NCBI GenBank assembly: GCA_964508365.1
Contig: CAZDTP010000066.1
Span: 1-18,444 of the forward strand
Source of the DNA: an uncultured archaeon
Lineage (GTDB): Archaea > Asgardarchaeota > Lokiarchaeia > Sigyniarchaeales > SOKP01
DNA: 18,444 nucleotides
Direction of reading: 5' to 3'
In this document: piece after piece, positions 4,121-18,444 of the stretch
Numbering within the stretch: the first letter of the stretch is position 1
Layout of the letters: each line of letters begins with the position of its first letter
Program-made: the position numbers and the translations under genes
Notes under the pieces: generated by a model
Seen by the model: the letters and a program-made list of their open reading frames with translations, nothing else
The model's database searches: none
Told to the model about the DNA's origin: nothing

Positions 4121-5302
4121 TTATTCCGATTGATCTGATAATCTCTGCTCAATTATTTTAAGTATGATATAGGCGAGAAACCCTACAAGAAATCCAAGAG
4201 TAATATTAAAAATGAAGCAGAAGATTGCTGAAATAAGGATTATCGGAAGATTCTTACTTTTAAAGTCTTTAAATGATATTTTCCCCAATAAGAAAGCGGT
4301 GTAAAGCAACATTGCCCCTAAAATGGCTTTAGGGAAATTGTTAAACAATAAAAATAATGTTTCAGAAAAGAATAATCCGAGTAAAAGTTCCATTATACCT
4401 TCTAAAATCATCGAGCCACCAGTTCTAGCACCAAAAGCATATTGCGCTGCTAATCCGCCAGATCCGTGGCATAAAGGGATACCTCCTAAAAAAGGACTAA
4501 TTAAATTCATTATCCCCATATTAACTGCTAACTCGCTGGCTGTTATAGCATTTTCTTTTTCAGGAAATAAATCTTTAATAAGACTTACAGTAGCAATCAT
4601 AACATTTGTAAGCGTTAATAATAACTGTGCGATCCCAGCTATTATCATACCAACTAAAATCTCATCCCATTGAGGAACATAGAAATCAAATTGTGGTAGT
4701 CCAAATTGGATGTTTGACAATGTGATTGATTGATTTAAAAAAAGTAGGACTATACCGAGAGCGACCAAAATAATAGATGAGGGCATCCATTTAAATCTTA
4801 AAATTAAAATTATAATAAAAACAGATATAATCCCAAGAAATATATTGGATATCAGTAATAGATAAGCAGTCCACCCTAAAATTAACCCTAACCCTAGCTG
4901 AATTCCTCGAACCAAAACAACAGGGACCTTTCTCACTATTTTTTCTAGGAATTTTGTTAACCCCAATATCGTCCATATAATACCCGTGCCAAATCCCGTT
5001 GATATAACTAAACCAGGATTCCAAGCTTGAGATATTGCTATCGTACCAATTGTTTTCTGTGGTTGGACAGGCAACGGTAGGTTAAATCTGATTCCTAATA
5101 TGATATTGGTAAAACCTAGGCAGAGAAACACACCTGCGGGATTTAAACCTACAATCGAGATGTAACCAATAATAAAAGGAATTAAAGTTCCCCAATCTCC
5201 CAGAGCTCCAGCAAATTCACTTAATGAAAATTTAGTTGGATAGCTCCTCCGGATCGGTTGTTTTTTAGTTTTTATAGTTCTTGTACTTTTCTTAATGTTC
5301 AT
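4121..5302 (-). CDS. MOT1-family molybdate (or sulfate) anion transporter
   Basis: Motifs EFAGALGDWGTLIP, PLPVQPQKTIG and PLCHGSGGLAAQYAFGARTGG match the two MOT1 signature regions (GDLGT..P.PVQPMK and P.CHG.GGLA.QY.FG.R.G). Many TM helices. Confidence 0.85.
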   Translation of the reverse strand: MNIKKSTRTIKTKKQPIRRSYPTKFSLSEFAGALGDWGTLIPFIIGYISIVGLNPAGVFLCLGFTNIILGIRFNLPLPVQPQKTIGTIAISQAWNPGLVISTGFGTGIIWTILGLTKFLEKIVRKVPVVLVRGIQLGLGLILGWTAYLLLISNIFLGIISVFIIILILRFKWMPSSIILVALGIVLLFLNQSITLSNIQFGLPQFDFYVPQWDEILVGMIIAGIAQLLLTLTNVMIATVSLIKDLFPEKENAITASELAVNMGIMNLISPFLGGIPLCHGSGGLAAQYAFGARTGGSMILEGIMELLLGLFFSETLFLLFNNFPKAILGAMLLYTAFLLGKISFKDFKSKNLPIILISAIFCFIFNITLGFLVGFLAYIILKIIEQRLSDQSE

Positions 5303-5436
5303 CAGATTTTCTTTAATATATTAAACCTAAGTATACCATATTTTTGATAAAATTTATTATTAAATGTAGCCTAAAAGAATATTAAAACTTAGTAAAATTT
5401 TAAAAGACTATTAATAATTTATAAACTAAGAAATTA

Positions 5437-6339
5437 GTGATATTTACCATGAATGAATTAAAATCTGAAGGTATTCCTTTCTATATTGTTGATGTATTCG
5501 CAGAAGGAAAATACTCTGGCAACCAACTCGCCGTCGTAATAAGTAGAAATAAGCTTAACGGCGAAGAGATGCAACGTATAGCAAAAGAAATGAATTATTC
5601 TGAAACCACCTTTATTACTTCCGTTGAGAATTACGATGTTAGAATCTTTACTCCTGAAGTAGAGTTACCTTTTGCAGGACATCCTTTAATTGGAACAGCT
5701 TACATATTTCAGCAAGAATTCATGAGAGAAAAAGCTAAAACCATGGCACTAAACTTAAAAATTGGCCATATTGCAATTTTATTCAAATATAAAGGTGAAA
5801 TACTTTCAGAAACATGGATGGAACATAAACAACCAACATTCAGCGGATTTTTAGCGCCTGACGTGATAGCCGATGTTCTAGGTATAGACGAAAACGATAT
5901 CGATGATAGATTTAAAATTCAAGAGGTTTCCACTGGTATTCCTACTATCATTGTGCCTTTAAAATCCTTAAATATCGTAAAAAAAGTGTCTATAAATAAT
6001 GAAAAGTATACACATCTAATTCAAAATACCCAAGCTAAAACCATATTAGTCTTTTGTCCTGAAACCTACGATAAAAGAAACGATTTAAATGTGCGATTTT
6101 TTGCTAATTACTATGGCGTACCAGAAGATCCCGCAACTGGTTCTGCAAATGGTTGTTTAGCGGCTTACTTGGTGAAGTATGATTATTTTGGTAAAAAAAA
6201 CATTGAGATTCGAGTTGAGCAAGGCTATGAAATTGGGAGGAAATCTCTACTTCTTTTAAAGGCTGAAGAAAAAGCCGGTAAATTCTATATCACTGTTGGT
6301 GGTAAGGTTATACTAGTAGCTAAAGGAACATTGCTCTAA
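5437..6339 (+). CDS. PhzF-family (DAP epimerase-like) isomerase/epimerase; ATG at 5450 region (MNELK) may be the true start
   Basis: VDVF..GNQLAV, EMNYSETTF (catalytic Glu), RIFTPEVELPFAGHP, EDPATGSA and EQG..GRKS are the canonical PhzF motifs. Confidence 0.92.
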   Translation: MIFTMNELKSEGIPFYIVDVFAEGKYSGNQLAVVISRNKLNGEEMQRIAKEMNYSETTFITSVENYDVRIFTPEVELPFAGHPLIGTAYIFQQEFMREKAKTMALNLKIGHIAILFKYKGEILSETWMEHKQPTFSGFLAPDVIADVLGIDENDIDDRFKIQEVSTGIPTIIVPLKSLNIVKKVSINNEKYTHLIQNTQAKTILVFCPETYDKRNDLNVRFFANYYGVPEDPATGSANGCLAAYLVKYDYFGKKNIEIRVEQGYEIGRKSLLLLKAEEKAGKFYITVGGKVILVAKGTLL

Positions 6340-6423
6340 TACTAAAATGCCCAACATCCGGTAAGTCAATTAACCAATAAATTAGAAAAAAACTATTTCT
6401 TTTAATATTTTAGTTTAAAATTA

Positions 6424-6768
6424 TTGATAAATTGTTTTATCGTATTAGCATTGGAAATAAAGATTTTTGATAATTGGAGAAAAGATCATCAGATTATTCT
6501 CGAGAAAATCATTACTTTAGCGGATTTTCCTGACAATGGAGATATCCAGAAAAAAAAATTCTCACTATTGACGGAACTATTCTTAAAACTTTGTTCAGTT
6601 AAGAATAACAAAGGCAATTTTAGAAACTTTTCAAGCTTAATTTTACTCCTTCTCAACTTATACAAAAAGAATTATCCTATTGATATTTTTACCAAAGAAA
6701 AGAACCGAAATCTTGAAACTGAGAAAGAATTTTCAGAATTAAATCGCCTCTTAAAACAAGAATTGTAA
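6424..6768 (+). CDS. Hypothetical helical protein (up to 114 aa; start uncertain)
   Basis: ORF track. Fills the gap in the same orientation as its neighbours. No recognisable motif. Confidence 0.55.
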   Translation: MINCFIVLALEIKIFDNWRKDHQIILEKIITLADFPDNGDIQKKKFSLLTELFLKLCSVKNNKGNFRNFSSLILLLLNLYKKNYPIDIFTKEKNRNLETEKEFSELNRLLKQEL

Positions 6769-12687: not shown

Positions 12688-13392
12688 ATGACTCATAAAA
12701 GTTCGATAGCATCTGCTGCATGTCTTTGCTTAGTTCTAATACTAATTTTCCCTCCTTATATACTTGGCAGCACGACTTTAGGAGAGTCTACATTTCCTGT
12801 TGAAGAAGGAAATGTGTTCACCTGGGAAAAGGTAAATGCGACTGAATCGTGGTATATGGATGTTCCACTTGTGCGAGTCACTGTTTCAAAAATTTATAAC
12901 GAGACTTTCAACGGAGAGAATTATCTTTATATGAATTACACATTAGAGTATTATTACAAAATCGATTGGGTGCCACGCTATACAAATTCCTTTTACTTAG
13001 CTTATAATAAAACTCTTAATTTCTTAAATTGGTCTGAGGAAGGATTTCTGAACGGCAATTTATTTATATTTCCTACTCCAATTAATCTAATGCTCATAGG
13101 TGAAGCGGTCAAAAAAGAAGGTTTCCTAAATTATACGATAATTGGTCAAAAAATCGTTTTAGACTACTATGGAAATAGTACTAAAATTGAATTAACTATT
13201 AATTCTTCTGGATTCTCTACGATTATAGAAAAAATTACAAACGGAACAACAATCTACAGGTGGGAATTGAACGAAAAAGAAATCATTATAATAATTCCTT
13301 TTGGGAGCAACTTTTTAATAATTACATTCGCTTGTATAATTCCTCTTGTTGTCATTACGAAAAAAAAGATAGCGAACTCTAAAAAGCATTAA
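12688..13392 (+). CDS. Secreted/surface protein with signal peptide and Loki-CTERM-like C-terminal anchor (IPFG + TM + basic tail)
   Basis: N-terminal hydrophobic helix. Beta-rich ectodomain with many N-x-S/T sequons (NAT, NET, NYT, NKT, NWS, NST, NSS, NGT). C-terminal IPFGSNFLIITFACIIPLVVITKKK. Confidence 0.75.
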   Translation: MTHKSSIASAACLCLVLILIFPPYILGSTTLGESTFPVEEGNVFTWEKVNATESWYMDVPLVRVTVSKIYNETFNGENYLYMNYTLEYYYKIDWVPRYTNSFYLAYNKTLNFLNWSEEGFLNGNLFIFPTPINLMLIGEAVKKEGFLNYTIIGQKIVLDYYGNSTKIELTINSSGFSTIIEKITNGTTIYRWELNEKEIIIIIPFGSNFLIITFACIIPLVVITKKKIANSKKH

Positions 13393-13405
13393 AATTTAAT
13401 GCTTT
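13383..13405. promoter_or_regulatory. 23-bp inverted repeat AAAGCATTAAA-A-TTTAATGCTTT (operator or terminator hairpin)
   Basis: Perfect 11-bp arms read directly. It overlaps the stop of the upstream gene and lies about 80 nt before the acyl-CoA dehydrogenase start. Confidence 0.45.
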
Positions 13406-13486
13406 ACGAAAATTTATGTATAGCTTAATTTTTTCTATATCACTAATACGATTATTATAGATTAAATTAATAAAAGATGAAAAAAC

Positions 13487-15016
13487 TTGAGTGAAGAATT
13501 TTTTTGGTGGAATGATGAACAGAAAGCTGTTTATAAAGAAGTGAGGCAGTTTGTAGAAGAAAACTTCGAAGAAGCTGAAGAATACTTTTGGAATAAAAAA
13601 TTTCCGTGGCCTCTCGTAAAAAAAGTGGCACAAAAAGGTTATTTCGGGGTAGGTGTTCCAAAAGAATACGGGGGATTAGAATTAGGTGCTACGGGAAGTT
13701 GTATAGTGGCTGCACAACTTGGGAGACTTTACGCTGTAGGACACGTATTTACCGTAAGCATGTTAGCTGGATTGGAACAAATATTAAGGTTCGGAACAGA
13801 AGAACAAAAAAAAATGTGGCTTCCTAAAATCGCAAGTGGGGAAGAATTAGGAGCTCTTTGTATTACTGAACCGTTTGCAGGGTCAGATGCCGCAAATGTT
13901 TTTACTTCTGCGATCAAAGATGGAGATGAATGGGTACTAAATGGTAAAAAGCGATTCATTACAGGAGCAGGTGTTTCTGATAGGTATTTTATTTACGCTA
14001 AAACTAGCGATGATAAAGCTATTCGGAAGCAATATGGGCATATTACTGCTTTCATGGTGGAAAAAGGTAGGCAAGGTTTTAGTTTAGAAAAGATTAATCC
14101 ATTGATTGGATTTGATAATGTTCCAAACGGATACATAGATTTCGATCACGTCAGAATCCCTGATTTTAATCGGATTGGAGCTGTTGGCAACGGTTGGAAC
14201 GTAATGATGGCAGGTCTAAACTTCGAACGTTTAATTGGGGCAGCAGTTTTCAGTGGGTTATTTGAAGATGTTATTAATTTATTATTTCATTTCACAAAAA
14301 GGCGCGTTCAATTTAACAGAACTACGAATCAACTTCCTGGAGTACAAGATGGAATTGCTGAAATTATAACTAAATCAAAGGTCTCAAGGTTATATTCTTA
14401 TTACTGTGCTAAATTACTAGATGACGGAAAAGAGCCTATGGTTGAAGCATCTATCGCTAAATTGATTAATACGGAGTATGCTAGAGATATTGGACTTAAT
14501 GCCATCCAGATTTTAGGAGGAGATGGTCTTACTAAATTTCTACCAGCTGAAAGAATTTTACGTGAGGCTAAAATCGGAGAAATTGTAGCGGGCACGAATG
14601 AAATTCAAAAAATGATCATTTTCCGTTTTAGTGCTATGCTTCCTTTCTATAACAAACATATGAGATTGAGATGGAACGATAAAGTTAATGCTCCTATTAT
14701 TTCAAGCAAAGAATCTCAATTCAAAGGACTTGATCTCACAGAAGAAAATGTGTTAAAAGTTATCTCCCACGATTATAAAGTAAACCCGGGTTTGTATATG
14801 ACTCCCGACGAAGTACGCGAGGATATAGGAGGTAGTAGATCAGATTTGCGAAAAATTTTTGAGCAATTAGAAGAACAAGGATTAATCGTTATTCATCGCG
14901 ATCGCTCTGGAAAAACTGCTTTAGTTAAAGCTACTTACGATGGATTGCAAAAAGCGTTTCCAAAAGAATATTATCAGTGGTTTCCAGACTGGTATGAAAA
15001 TGCTGATAAGTTTTAG
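13487..15016 (+). CDS. Acyl-CoA dehydrogenase (IVD/LCAD-type catalytic Glu) with a C-terminal winged-helix extension
   Basis: ALCITEPFAGSDA, LNGKKRFITG, LNFERL (Glu247), RRVQF, AIQILGGDG and EIVAGTNEIQK (Ala368 at the MCAD Glu position). About 128 extra residues follow the ACAD core. Confidence 0.93.
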   Translation: MSEEFFWWNDEQKAVYKEVRQFVEENFEEAEEYFWNKKFPWPLVKKVAQKGYFGVGVPKEYGGLELGATGSCIVAAQLGRLYAVGHVFTVSMLAGLEQILRFGTEEQKKMWLPKIASGEELGALCITEPFAGSDAANVFTSAIKDGDEWVLNGKKRFITGAGVSDRYFIYAKTSDDKAIRKQYGHITAFMVEKGRQGFSLEKINPLIGFDNVPNGYIDFDHVRIPDFNRIGAVGNGWNVMMAGLNFERLIGAAVFSGLFEDVINLLFHFTKRRVQFNRTTNQLPGVQDGIAEIITKSKVSRLYSYYCAKLLDDGKEPMVEASIAKLINTEYARDIGLNAIQILGGDGLTKFLPAERILREAKIGEIVAGTNEIQKMIIFRFSAMLPFYNKHMRLRWNDKVNAPIISSKESQFKGLDLTEENVLKVISHDYKVNPGLYMTPDEVREDIGGSRSDLRKIFEQLEEQGLIVIHRDRSGKTALVKATYDGLQKAFPKEYYQWFPDWYENADKF

Positions 15017-15049: not shown

Positions 15050-15400
15050 CTAGTCTTCTATTTTAAAGTTTTTAATAGTACTAACTTTGTTATTAACATC
15101 TATAGTTACGGCTAATAGTATTATCTCGTCGTCGTCCTCAAACTCGGGATCTACCATTACAAAGTAAAAAATTTCATCCCTCGTATTGTATCCCATCTCT
15201 AATTCGCCGCATTCTTCCGGTAAGATCCTTAATAGATCATCAGAAGCATAATTCTTCAATACCTCGTATATCGAATTTTCGATTTTCGTTTGACTCTTTC
15301 GTATTTCTTTTACATTTGAAAAATCAAATTGACCCATTGATTCTCCAGCTTTAATATTTAGCTCGTTCCATTCTAGAAATAAGTCATTTAATTTTGGCAT
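15050..15400 (-). CDS. Acidic hypothetical protein (about 116 aa, from MPKLNDLF)
   Basis: The ORF track gives 15050-15460. The first 20 codons look like low-complexity AT-rich intergenic sequence, so ATG at 15400 is preferred. Confidence 0.7.
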   Translation of the reverse strand: MPKLNDLFLEWNELNIKAGESMGQFDFSNVKEIRKSQTKIENSIYEVLKNYASDDLLRILPEECGELEMGYNTRDEIFYFVMVDPEFEDDDEIILLAVTIDVNNKVSTIKNFKIED

Positions 15401-15617
15401 AATTTCTTTGTCTCCTAAAACCAAGATAAATATTATTATTATCCTAAGAATAAAACTCAACTACGATTACAAGTAAAATGGAACTAAAAGAATTAATTTT
15501 GTTCACAATTCAAAATTTTTAAAGGATTAAAATGTTACAATTCAATAATAATAATGTTTATTGAACTGCATTCTTATAAATTATGTAAGAAAAATAACGA
15601 ATAAAGGTTCTCAAAAA

Positions 15618-16559
15618 ATGAAAAAAAATAAATCTTATTTTAGAGGGAGCAATATTGCTCACACATATTCTATCGTGGCAAGAGATACTAAAACCGGGGA
15701 GATGGGAGTTGGCGTCCAAAGTCACTATTTCTCGGTTGGGAGCATCGTCTCTTGGGGTGAATCTGGAGTTGGAGTCGTGGCTACTCAATCGCTCGTGAAT
15801 GCATCATTTGGTTTACGAGGTTTAGAACTTCTAAAGCAAGGTAAAACACCAAAAGCAGCTTTAGATTTTTTAATATCTGAAGATGAAGGCAGAGATGTAA
15901 GACAAGTAGCAATATTAGACGCTCAAGGTAGAGTTGCTGCCTATACTGGTTCGAAATGCATTATTCACGCTGGTCACATTGAAGGTGATAATTTTTCAGT
16001 TCAAGCTAATATGATGCTTACCGATAAAGTCTGGTCAACAATGGCTAAAAGTTTTGAATTGAATAGCAATTTACCCTTAGCTGAAAGAATCATAAAAACG
16101 ATGGAAGCAGCAGAAACTGTAGGAGGCGATATCAGAGGAAAACAATCTGCAGCGATTTTAATTGTAGGCGGTAAAGAAGCCGAAAATAAGTGGGAAGATA
16201 AAATCATCGATTTAAGAGTCGAAGATCACGAGGAACCAGTGAAGGAAATTGGAAGGTTATTAAAACTTTATAGAGCTTATAAACACATGGACAAAGGAGA
16301 TTTAGCAATGGAACACGATGATATGGAGTCTGCACTTAATGAATATGATTCTGCTCTAAATATGTTTCCTGATAATCTTGAAATGAAATTCTGGACAGCT
16401 GTCACCTTGGCTAATAACCAAAAAATTAAAGAAGCATCAAAAATCTTTAAAAAAGTCTTTAATAAAGACAATAATTGGCGATTGCTGGCAGAAAGACTAC
16501 CCGAGAGCGATTTATTAACAGTTTCTAAAGATGATTTAAAAAAAATCTTGTCATTATAG
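15618..16559 (+). CDS. DUF1028 family Ntn-hydrolase with C-terminal TPR domain (ATG at 15618 preferred over TTG at 15561)
   Basis: HTYSIVARD..TGEMGVGVQS, VATQS, RQVAILD, QANMM and GGDIRGKQSAA, then DLRVEDH. The C-terminus has a TPR-like A/G pattern (KGDLAM..ALNEYDSALNMFPDN). Confidence 0.9.
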   Translation: MKKNKSYFRGSNIAHTYSIVARDTKTGEMGVGVQSHYFSVGSIVSWGESGVGVVATQSLVNASFGLRGLELLKQGKTPKAALDFLISEDEGRDVRQVAILDAQGRVAAYTGSKCIIHAGHIEGDNFSVQANMMLTDKVWSTMAKSFELNSNLPLAERIIKTMEAAETVGGDIRGKQSAAILIVGGKEAENKWEDKIIDLRVEDHEEPVKEIGRLLKLYRAYKHMDKGDLAMEHDDMESALNEYDSALNMFPDNLEMKFWTAVTLANNQKIKEASKIFKKVFNKDNNWRLLAERLPESDLLTVSKDDLKKILSL

Positions 16560-16561
16560 CA

Positions 16562-17065
16562 TTAAAGAAGATATATATTATCGAAATCATTTTTATTCAT
16601 CGAAAATTTCATAACCTTCTTATTTTTTTGTTCAATGATTATATCCCCCAAGTATTTCATCCCAGAACGTTCTGCTACTAACCATCCTCCCCTGTTATCT
16701 TGATTGACATAAGCAAACAGTGTATCTATTTTTAAGGTTGAAAATGCGAATTCAATAGATTTTTTAAGAGCCTCTATTGCGTAACCACTCCCGCGGTATT
16801 GAGGAAATAATATAAAATAGCATTCCATTTCGCTACTGATATTTAAGGGTTTCAAAAAAATAAGACCTAAAAGTTGGTCATTGACTTTGTGAGTAATTGA
16901 AAAAATCAGTGTGTTCTTACGAATATCTGTAGAGAATATACTCTGGTCGGTATAACCCTCAAACATTTGATGTAATTCTTTATCACTTTCATAAAAATCC
17001 ATCTGATTAATTTGCTGGATAAAGAGTCTTTTTGTTTCTAGCGTATTAAGGATTTCAGGATTCAA
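16562..17065 (-). CDS. GNAT family N-acetyltransferase, RimJ/RimL-like
   Basis: LETKRL N-terminus, acetyl-CoA binding motif PQYRGSGYAIEAL, and N..G..VAERSGM. Confidence 0.88.
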   Translation of the reverse strand: MNPEILNTLETKRLFIQQINQMDFYESDKELHQMFEGYTDQSIFSTDIRKNTLIFSITHKVNDQLLGLIFLKPLNISSEMECYFILFPQYRGSGYAIEALKKSIEFAFSTLKIDTLFAYVNQDNRGGWLVAERSGMKYLGDIIIEQKNKKVMKFSMNKNDFDNIYLL

Positions 17066-17533: not shown

Positions 17534-17692
17534 GAATTACTGATTTTTTCGGTATATTTAAACAAAAAAAAAATCCGTTTATGGGTAAAATAATTTTTCT
17601 TTATAGGAGCAGTTTGTTAATTGCGTATTAGGAAAATACTAGGGTTTAAAAATATAGTTGTTAATTATTTGGTGATTCTAAGTGTTAAAATT

Positions 17693-18444
17693 ATGATAGA
17701 ACCAAAACCTAAAAAAAACGAAGCGGAATCATTTGAACATCTTAAAATAAAAGACCATTTCTACACATTCCTTCCGCTTGATAATAAAGTTGAGTTTTTA
17801 AAGAAAGAATATCCTATCGGTGATAGAATTGCAGATATTTATTGTAAATTAAGTACTGGTAAAAAAATAGTAGTAGAAATACAACATTCAATGATACTTG
17901 TTAAGGATTTAATACAACGGACTAGAGAATACAACGAGAATAATTGTTTTGTGTTATGGGTATTCAATGGTAGTTCGTTTGAACGCTACCCTAAAAATGA
18001 AGAGAATGTAAGGATATTAGCTTTTGAAAAATGGTGTCACTTGTTATATCGTGGGCGTGTATATTACATTAATATGACTAAATCTGGTATCCATAGCCCG
18101 GTTTATCCTGCTCATTTTGCGAATTATTACGAACTAAAATACTCTAAATTGGGATTCCAGTTCTATCAGAGGTCTTTAATTAAAAAAAGTTTTATACACT
18201 CTTTTATTCCCTCTCTAAAAATTAAAACATTTAAAAATATGGGATTTAACCTAGCTGGGTTCTATGATGATAACATAAGAAATTCATGCTTAGATGAAAT
18301 TACACAATTCTTAAAAAATTATAATGCTATTGAAAAAGAAGTAAAAAAAATAAAAAAAATGAGTCCAAATCAAAAGATGCTTTACCTAATTATTGGGATT
18401 TACGGTAATAAGTATGGATTAAATTTATTATTTAATATATTAAA
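17693..18444 (+). CDS. CoiA-like PD-(D/E)xK nuclease-domain protein, 3'-partial (not in the ORF track)
   Basis: The frame is open from ATG 17693 to the window end: MIEPKPKKNEAESFEHLKIK...EYPIGDRIADI...VVEIQHS...LIQRTREY...VLWVF. GGTGA Shine-Dalgarno-like motif at 17671-17675. Confidence 0.75.
   Translation, partial: MIEPKPKKNEAESFEHLKIKDHFYTFLPLDNKVEFLKKEYPIGDRIADIYCKLSTGKKIVVEIQHSMILVKDLIQRTREYNENNCFVLWVFNGSSFERYPKNEENVRILAFEKWCHLLYRGRVYYINMTKSGIHSPVYPAHFANYYELKYSKLGFQFYQRSLIKKSFIHSFIPSLKIKTFKNMGFNLAGFYDDNIRNSCLDEITQFLKNYNAIEKEVKKIKKMSPNQKMLYLIIGIYGNKYGLNLLFNIL

Follow-up and report, generated by a model that had tools for sequence, protein, structure and literature searches.

Acyl-CoA dehydrogenases (ACADs) are textbook enzymes, and the few accessory domains known among them, such as those of VLCAD/ACAD9 and AidB, have each brought unexpected biology. 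In VLCAD, ACAD9 and the FadE-type ACADs of Bacillus, a C-terminal accessory domain alters quaternary structure or the association with partners or membranes, rather than catalysis. E. coli AidB, a protein with the ACAD fold, uses a positively charged C-terminal domain to bind DNA (PMC3546729), and LSD1/KDM1A combines a SWIRM module with an FAD amine oxidase (PMC4931117). Here we analyse a gene at positions 13487-15016 of an 18,444-nucleotide stretch of DNA from an uncultured archaeon of the Lokiarchaeia (contig CAZDTP010000066.1; this whole stretch is referred to as the window), whose product joins a complete ACAD to a C-terminal winged-helix (wH) domain. We found no paper in the literature describing such an ACAD-wH fusion, which apparently represents a coherent, widespread and undescribed ACAD subfamily of anaerobes. 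A sequence-only reading of the window had proposed an enzyme-regulator that may sense acyl-CoA or FAD redox state and bind DNA, with a protein-docking module, for example for electron-transfer flavoprotein (ETF), as the alternative. The explanation that we favour, and to which we give roughly an even chance of being right, is that of an active ACAD of the IVD type in which the wH module serves as an integral accessory, rather than that of a classical sequence-specific transcription factor.

The catalytic core and its C-terminal winged helix

All three Pfam ACAD domains (PF02771, PF02770 and PF00441) are present in the window protein, the N domain with 100 bits, the M domain with 74 bits and the C domain with 117 bits, each exceeding its curated cut-off; together with a template-modelling score (TMt) of 0.91 to solved ACADs, this places the protein in the acyl-CoA dehydrogenase superfamily. 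The alignment to its closest solved relative, B. subtilis MmgC (5lnx), spans residues 10-381. When aligned without gaps to human IVD (1ivh_A), E247 falls on chain position 254, which we take to be the catalytic base Glu254, while the MCAD-type position (E376) is occupied by Ala368, within 'IVAGTNEIQ', and holds no Glu. Of the two positions known for the catalytic Glu of ACADs, it is thus the IVD/LCAD one (E254 type) that is filled, and E247 forms an invariant column of alignment A1 and is kept in every row of a one-in-three sample from 146 aligned fusion sequences. Since the ACAD domains are complete and a Glu stands at the IVD catalytic position, the enzyme half looks, from its sequence, like a fully functional IVD-type ACAD. 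No substrate can be named, as the NCBIfam equivalogs (AcrC acryloyl-CoA reductase, glutaryl-CoA dehydrogenase, FadE and others) all score far below their cut-offs, the best of them being AcrC with 272 bits against a cut-off of 640. The TTG start codon is supported by 30 orthologues, in which this position likewise holds ATG, GTG or TTG, giving M/V/L-SE.FFWW; the Trp residues of this N-terminal motif are specific to the fusion family when compared with the 13 tail-less ACAD paralogues of the same genome.

The 128 residues that follow the core (382-509) are not covered by any solved ACAD in a Foldseek comparison, in which human IVD was the top match and the longest alignment had 389 columns. We modelled the protein with AlphaFold2 in two ways, at full length with 33 homologues (predicted local distance difference test, pLDDT, 89.8; predicted template-modelling score, pTM, 0.84) and as the tail alone with 30 homologues (pLDDT 90.6). 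Both models agree on the layout, and the model of the tail is confident, with pLDDT 88-98. In either of them, a small β-hairpin (394-405) comes first; helices H1 (419-432), H2 (440-447) and H3 (451-463) precede a two-stranded wing (467-482), and a short strand lies within the invariant 'DYKVNPGLYM' loop; two short helices follow the wing, and then the aromatic C-terminus 'FPKEYYQWFPDWYENADKF'. This winged-helix topology is backed by an exhaustive fold comparison of the tail, with 2obp as the best match (Z 11.8 across 80 residues). Regulators, namely MarR (5h3r, Z 9.9), IdeR and HxlR, were found at Z 9-10, protein-docking wH domains (cohesin Scc1-C, ScpA-C and Rio2) at Z 8.6-9.4 and SelB, a wH of the RNA/wing-acting kind, at Z 8.6. 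The sequence-only reading was thus right in recognizing a complete ACAD up to about residue 381 (Pfam 9-380; 5lnx 10-381) with a winged helix behind it, and its placement of the latter at about 14741-14950 agrees well with the modelled domain at 14741-14935. In the core, the sole model stretch with pLDDT below 50 comprises a conserved loop, residues 127-136 (TEPFAGSDAA; window positions 13865-13894). Loops of this type touch FAD and substrate in ACADs, and low confidence is expected there because the prediction was made without cofactor.

Several features of the models suggest that tail and core are held in a fixed arrangement. The pTM of the full-length model stands at 0.84, compared to a TMq of about 0.70 for the core alone against solved ACADs, and the linker between the two parts is ordered in the full-length model (pLDDT 85) but not in that of the tail alone (54). 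The fusion-specific N-terminal Trp and the invariant aromatic C-terminus ending in Phe point in the same direction. The residues of the tail that are invariant throughout the family are located outside H3 and are of aromatic or hydrophobic character (L423, Y430, P434, Y437, L479, Y484, G486, Y496, W498, P500 and the terminal F509).

In the explanation that we favour, the protein would be an FAD-dependent, catalytically competent IVD-type ACAD with its catalytic Glu on helix G, and its C-terminal 128 residues would form an obligate, enzyme-specific accessory domain, composed of a β-hairpin, a winged helix and an aromatic clasp ending in Phe. The architecture and fold, the pattern of conservation, the phylogeny and the setting in catabolic operons are shown here; beyond them, we infer that the tail packs on the catalytic core in a fixed orientation and works at the level of protein or ligand. 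It may set the quaternary structure, dock an electron acceptor, a pathway enzyme or some other partner, or cover the CoA substrate at its nucleotide end. An anionic partner or phosphate groups would most likely be contacted by the basic wing (R471, R473, K481), and a basic patch on H3 (R451, R455, K456), derived in the crown clade of the family, would extend this anion-contacting surface.

Distribution of the fusion and charge of its tail

More than 240 fusion sequences were collected. About 100 protein clusters of 506-516 residues share the architecture, under the names Promethearchaeota, Thor-, Hod-, Hermod- and Lokiarchaeota, and of 300 Asgard genomes that were sampled, 60 have the fusion, its open frames invariably measuring about 510-560 residues. 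It is frequent among the close relatives of the window's archaeon, with 39 of 68 genomes in the family and 23 of 27 in the genus. A further 80 loci in bacteria and other archaea emerged when 185,579 species genomes were scanned; they come from Desulfobacterales/Desulfatiglandales, Syntrophorhabdaceae, Dehalococcoidia, Bathyarchaeia, Ca. Syntrophoarchaeum butanivorans, Clostridia and Krumholzibacteria, and also from Baldr-, Jord-, Atabey-, Hel- and Hermodarchaeota. As the same architecture of about 509 residues recurs in about 100 clusters, 60 Asgard genomes and 80 further loci, the fusion is real, and not a product of chance or an assembly artefact; its taxonomic distribution, which the sequence-only reading had wished to see established, is wide. 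Members of the subfamily occur in Asgard archaea, Bathyarchaeia, Syntrophoarchaeum, Dehalococcoidia, Syntrophorhabdaceae and Desulfobacterota, with a concentration in anaerobes that degrade fatty acids, aromatics and hydrocarbons.

The tail is an old domain, obligately bound to one ACAD clade and concentrated in strict anaerobes. A phmmer search with the tail against 1.84 billion representative proteins returned 81 matches, consisting of ACAD fusions of about 500 residues, short fragments and a few long proteins matched in multiple short stretches only, and no stand-alone regulator family carrying this tail was matched among them. Short matches of 49-135 residues had appeared to be candidates for stand-alone tail proteins; those inspected begin at a conserved internal Met (M438, KMP motif or MII motif) or are chimeric, and they are most likely truncated gene calls. 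In the window's genome, which has about 14 ACAD paralogues, the tail occurs on the product of this one gene only. One Asgard family has 2-8 paralogous fusion copies per genome, and a lineage-specific expansion to 4-8 copies, with an acidic H3, is seen in five Asgard genomes (family f21, genus g36).

The charge of H3 differs between clades. In a tree of ACAD cores that was rooted on tail-less paralogues, the N-terminal half of H3 is acidic or neutral in the basal lineages, with a charge of -5 to 0, and the basic form, 'GGSRSxIRK' (+1 to +5), is the derived state of a crown clade of 39 representatives, including the window protein. Lys or Arg occupies position 451 in 100% of 88 crown sequences, position 455 in 97% and position 456 in 78%, whereas in 55 distant sequences Asp or Glu accounts for 64% at position 451, 49% at position 455, where Lys and Arg are absent, and 56% at position 456. 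On the wing, R471, R473 and K481 are basic in crown and distant groups alike, and its net charge is 0 to +7 in all lineages, mostly +2 to +6. Entire tails range from -6 to +6 across the family; the tail of the window protein has a net charge of -1 and its wH one of -2.

Given the acidic or neutral H3 of basal and bacterial lineages, DNA recognition through this helix cannot, judging from these alignments, be the ancestral or family-wide function of the domain. An acidic, unconserved recognition helix, which the sequence-only reading had named as a sign against a regulator, is what these lineages display, but it is not what the crown clade displays, with its near-invariant basic residues at positions 451 and 455. 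One could accordingly imagine that in the Promethearchaeati (Loki/Thor/Hod) crown an accessory wH of an ACAD, which ancestrally did not bind DNA, gained a basic H3 and then became a trigger enzyme that senses acyl-CoA or FAD redox state and binds DNA, such as its own strongly conserved promoter. We consider this course of events quite unlikely; if true, it would give the first ACAD regulator bearing a winged helix-turn-helix (wHTH) and, in the archaea most closely related to eukaryotes, a clear case in which transcription control has enlisted an enzyme domain.

The wing bears on yet another possibility, non-specific binding in the manner of AidB, in which the basic wing, together with H3 in the crown clade, would tether the flavoenzyme to DNA or RNA for localization or protection. 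Such a role would fit a wing that is basic in all lineages, the good score of RNA/wing-acting wH domains (SelB) in the fold comparison and the precedent set by AidB itself. However, the tail is near neutral overall, unlike the positively charged domain of AidB, its strongest conservation is aromatic and hydrophobic rather than basic, and none of the contexts examined links the fusion to a DNA-repair or RNA gene. We regard tethering of this kind as improbable.

Genomic context and upstream DNA

In bacteria and Bathyarchaeia, the fusion gene lies within catabolic operons. Neighbour clustering over 72 loci found a second fusion copy at 10 of them, genes for an AMP-forming acyl-CoA ligase and a carboxyltransferase at 8 each, the TRAP transporter components DctP, DctQ and DctM at 8, 5 and 4, respectively, molybdopterin hydroxylase, glyoxalase-type and FMN-reductase genes at 4 each, and a TetR regulator at 3. 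Such surroundings are those of an enzyme in a pathway, which in some cases has a separate regulator of its own. At six Dehalococcoidia loci (L094, L106, L110, L115, L117 and L126), the order ACAD-wH, carboxyltransferase (PF01039), ACAD-wH is conserved, which hints at a pathway of dehydrogenation and (de)carboxylation, such as leucine/isovalerate or glutaryl-CoA catabolism.

The partner to be docked by the tail might be ETF, which it would then recruit to the ACAD. The window's genome does encode EtfB and EtfA (contig C41, positions 5147-6641), adjoining a canonical ACAD, and protein-docking wH domains (Scc1-C, ScpA-C, Rio2) score as well as regulators in the fold comparison. Yet at none of the loci examined is an ETF gene adjacent to the fusion, and no ETF match was obtained in two genomes that have the fusion and are fairly complete (G008, 99%; G207, 92%). 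ETF is nearly ubiquitous, with matches in 250 of the 300 Asgard genomes as opposed to 60 for the fusion, making co-occurrence uninformative. Canonical ACADs, moreover, dock ETF without such a domain. Dedicated ETF docking is thus, in our estimate, very unlikely. Of the alternative offered by the sequence-only reading, docking as such stays viable and comes nearer to the explanation that we favour, while the specific link to ETF could not be shown.

The DNA upstream of the gene is relevant to a further rival explanation, according to which the fusion is a trigger enzyme, whose wH, in the crown clade, binds specific DNA, for example its own promoter, under the control of acyl-CoA occupancy or FAD redox state. 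In 19 of 30 orthologues, an element of 15-18 nt, CC[TGC]AAA[GC]TTTTAGAT[AT]TA, is located 67-85 nt before the start codon, while the flanking non-coding DNA is randomized (orthologous loci L008-L033; the promoter of L008 carries CCTAAAGTTTTAGATATA). The element includes an inverted repeat, CTAAA-nn-TTTAG, with half-sites about 7 bp apart from centre to centre. It is not a generic word, with 5-7 copies per genome within one mismatch, compared to 5-9 for a reversed control, and its other near-matches fall in coding sequence and form no coherent regulon.

As an operator, however, the element is an improbable candidate. Its conservation is one-sided, in that the right half, which is TATA-like, does not vary and the left half reads CTAAA, CGAAA or CCAAA; it lies within the range (-45 to -90) in which canonical TATA words are most frequent across the genome; distant copies with an acidic H3 have analogous AAAG/TTTAAAAA elements at similar distances; and in the window's subclade the element is degenerate (ACGAAAATTTATGTATAG), though H3 is unchanged. 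For these reasons, it is probably a strong and unusually well-conserved orthologous promoter, consisting of a B recognition element (BRE) and a TATA box. A sharp or strong generic BRE was not seen in the genome, and it is from the above features that we infer a promoter. A symmetric operator was not found to be conserved in the upstream regions of the 30 orthologues. A perfect palindrome of 17 nt in the window (Table 1) was also considered as an operator; it overlaps the stop codon of the upstream open reading frame (ORF), is not kept in relatives with 97-98% identical tails, and is probably not one.

Several observations weigh against the explanation that we favour. The fusion gene is monocistronic in the window as in other Asgard genomes, among unrelated, unconserved neighbours that give no functional hint, and no partner protein of the tail was identified. 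The crown clade has strictly conserved basic residues at canonical DNA-contact positions, which argues for selection for the binding of some polyanion. A charge swap between core and tail, in which position 29 changes from basic to acidic while positions 451 and 455 change from acidic to basic, had resembled an internal salt bridge; it failed an independent-pairs test on a 243-row tree, with no co-variation beyond one deep split (p 0.2-1). Finally, the wH has sequence affinity to the DNA-binding families TrmB, Rrf2 and GntR wHTH (hhalign 82%). In Pfam, the window protein scores 12.4 bits with TrmB (cut-off 25.6) and 14.8 bits with TFIIE_alpha (cut-off 22.9), and thus stays below the threshold for a MarR/TrmB-type assignment; among 33 orthologues, TrmB is touched in 15 (best E 6.5e-6), TFIIE_alpha in 12 and Rrf2 in 2 (4.9e-6), all of these being sub-threshold or marginal.

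The trigger-enzyme explanation can point to a true wHTH fold, closest to MarR, IdeR and HxlR, and to the affinity to TrmB, Rrf2 and GntR, to the conservation, in the 88 crown sequences, of R451, R/K455, K456, R471, R473 and K476 at positions that canonically contact DNA, to a gene-specific element with CTAAA-nn-TTTAG upstream of 19 of the 30 orthologues, and to AidB as a DNA binder with the ACAD fold (PMC3546729). It has to contend with the derived nature of the basic H3, the acidic H3 being conserved in basal Asgard archaea, Bathyarchaeia and bacteria, with an upstream element that is asymmetric, positioned like a TATA box, mirrored in acidic-H3 copies and degenerate in the window's own subclade, with half-sites that are only about 7 bp apart, with the net charge of -2 of the window's wH, and with the absence of a regulon among the near-matches of the element. 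We judge it to be unlikely, though serious enough to be kept in mind. What the sequence-only reading had proposed holds in part: a wH is genuinely fused to a complete ACAD and its H3 is basic in the crown clade, but H3 is acidic or neutral in basal and bacterial lineages and no symmetric operator is conserved.

Other searches for relatives of the tail were less specific. When alignment A2 was run as a profile against the PDB, the ACAD columns swamped the result and no match to the tail emerged, and the ESM Atlas returned generic small wHTH clusters only. The best PDB sequence match of the tail was the SWIRM domain of RSC8, with an E-value inflated by a duplicated chain. Specific homology to SWIRM (PF04433) was rejected, since the Pfam model has no match in the window's genome at E <= 10, and hhalign gives 52% for RSC8 SWIRM, against 82% for the generic GntR wHTH control.

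The features of the gene and its upstream DNA are collected in Table 1. Of its neighbours in the window, the two flanking genes at 12688-13392 (+) and 15050-15460 (-) have no Pfam match at E <= 0.01; further downstream are genes for a DUF1028 and TPR protein (15561-16559), a GNAT acetyltransferase (16562-17065) and a CoiA-like nuclease (17621-18442), which runs off the window.

Table 1. Coordinates of the ACAD-wH gene, the parts of its product and the upstream elements in the window
Feature	Position	Strand	Remarks
ACAD-winged-helix fusion, whole gene	13487-15016	+	509 residues; TTG start; TAA stop at 15014-15016; start position common to orthologues
ACAD catalytic core, residues 1-381	13487-14629	+	Pfam N 9-119, M 123-222, C 234-380
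E247 codon, putative catalytic base at the IVD/LCAD position	14225-14227	+	gapless alignment to human IVD 1ivh_A
Linker with small β-hairpin (strands 394-397 and 402-405), residues 382-418	14630-14740	+	conserved R393, W396, P403
Winged-helix core, residues 419-483	14741-14935	+	H1, invariant 'DYKVNPGLYM' loop, H2, H3, wing
H3 'recognition' helix, residues 451-463 (RSDLRKIFEQLEE)	14837-14875	+	R451, R455, K456 basic in crown clade, acidic in basal lineages
β-hairpin wing, residues 467-482 (IVIHRDRSGKTALVKA)	14885-14932	+	R471, R473, K476, K481, basic throughout the family
Aromatic C-terminal segment, residues 484-509 (YDGLQKAFPKEYYQWFPDWYENADKF)	14936-15013	+	Y484, G486, Y496, W498, P500 and terminal F509 invariant or nearly so
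Likely BRE/TATA core promoter (ACGAAAATTTATGTATAG)	13406-13423	+	about 80 nt before the start; would be the positional counterpart of the orthologue element
Perfect 8+1+8 palindrome, 17 nt (GCATTAAAaTTTAATGC)	13386-13402		straddles the stop codon (13390-13392) of the upstream ORF 12688-13392

Other ACAD paralogues of the same genome are unusual in their own ways. One of 467 residues (contig C3, positions ~104960-106360, + strand) ends in a rubredoxin-like motif (...WFCPICGSNKTKF), suggesting an ACAD-rubredoxin fusion and thus a putative second unusual C-terminal accessory domain in this genome. Those on contigs C43 (27391-30125), C54, C5 and C59, of about 430-440 residues, have an N-terminal extension (INDEILEKLSLKNR...) and 'GGSRQIQ' in place of 'EGTNEIQ', and form a distinct, divergent ACAD subfamily.

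Comparison with known flavoenzymes and winged-helix proteins

The clade-specific reversal of charge on a helix that normally reads DNA raises a testable question, namely whether the tail is an accessory docking domain or a newly evolved enzyme-regulator, and R451, R455, R471, R473 and F509 are defined as residues with which to approach it. If the tail is only structural, the consequence will be a correction of annotation, and the label of a MarR regulator should not be used; JGI pipelines label some of the orthologues 'AidB-like ACAD / DNA-binding MarR family'.

The first part of this label invites a comparison with AidB, in which an ACAD-like flavoprotein core is likewise followed by an extra C-terminal domain. 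AidB differs in that this domain is positively charged, whereas the wH tail of the fusion is near neutral (-1 in the window protein), and the fusion core groups with IVD and short-chain ACADs. A PDB sequence search with the tail brought up no AidB chain, even with a limit of E <= 10, and neither by charge nor by homology does the tail resemble AidB domain IV, which is presumably all-helical and not a wH. In LSD1/KDM1A, an HTH-like module on a flavoenzyme is found as well, but this is an analogy only, with no specific homology to the tail of the fusion.

As for the second part, the wHTH factors of the MarR, TrmB, GntR and IdeR types have the same H1-H2-H3-wing topology (Z 9-10) and a weak profile similarity to the tail, whose wing Arg and Lys residues resemble those of DNA-contacting wings, such as that of ST1710. 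These factors, however, are stand-alone dimers with dimerization and ligand domains of their own, while the wH of the fusion is joined to one ACAD clade only, has an extra hairpin and an aromatic C-terminus, and carries an acidic H3 in most lineages.

Among the ACADs themselves, chains of the VLCAD/ACAD9/FadE type are found among the matches of the core. Their C-terminal extension is helical and about 180 residues long, and their alignment with the fusion protein stops at about residue 378, in contrast to the tail of the fusion, a wH with a β wing. Over residues 1-381, the fusion has the same three-domain fold as IVD and the short/branched-chain ACADs (human IVD 1ivh/9jq4; B. subtilis MmgC 5lnx), with a TMt of 0.91 and 31-36% identity, and it shares their position of the catalytic Glu, the MCAD-type position being held by Ala or Gly. 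The canonical enzymes of this type end at about residue 380-390, where the fusion adds a wH tail of 128 residues, along with the family-specific Trp at its N-terminus.

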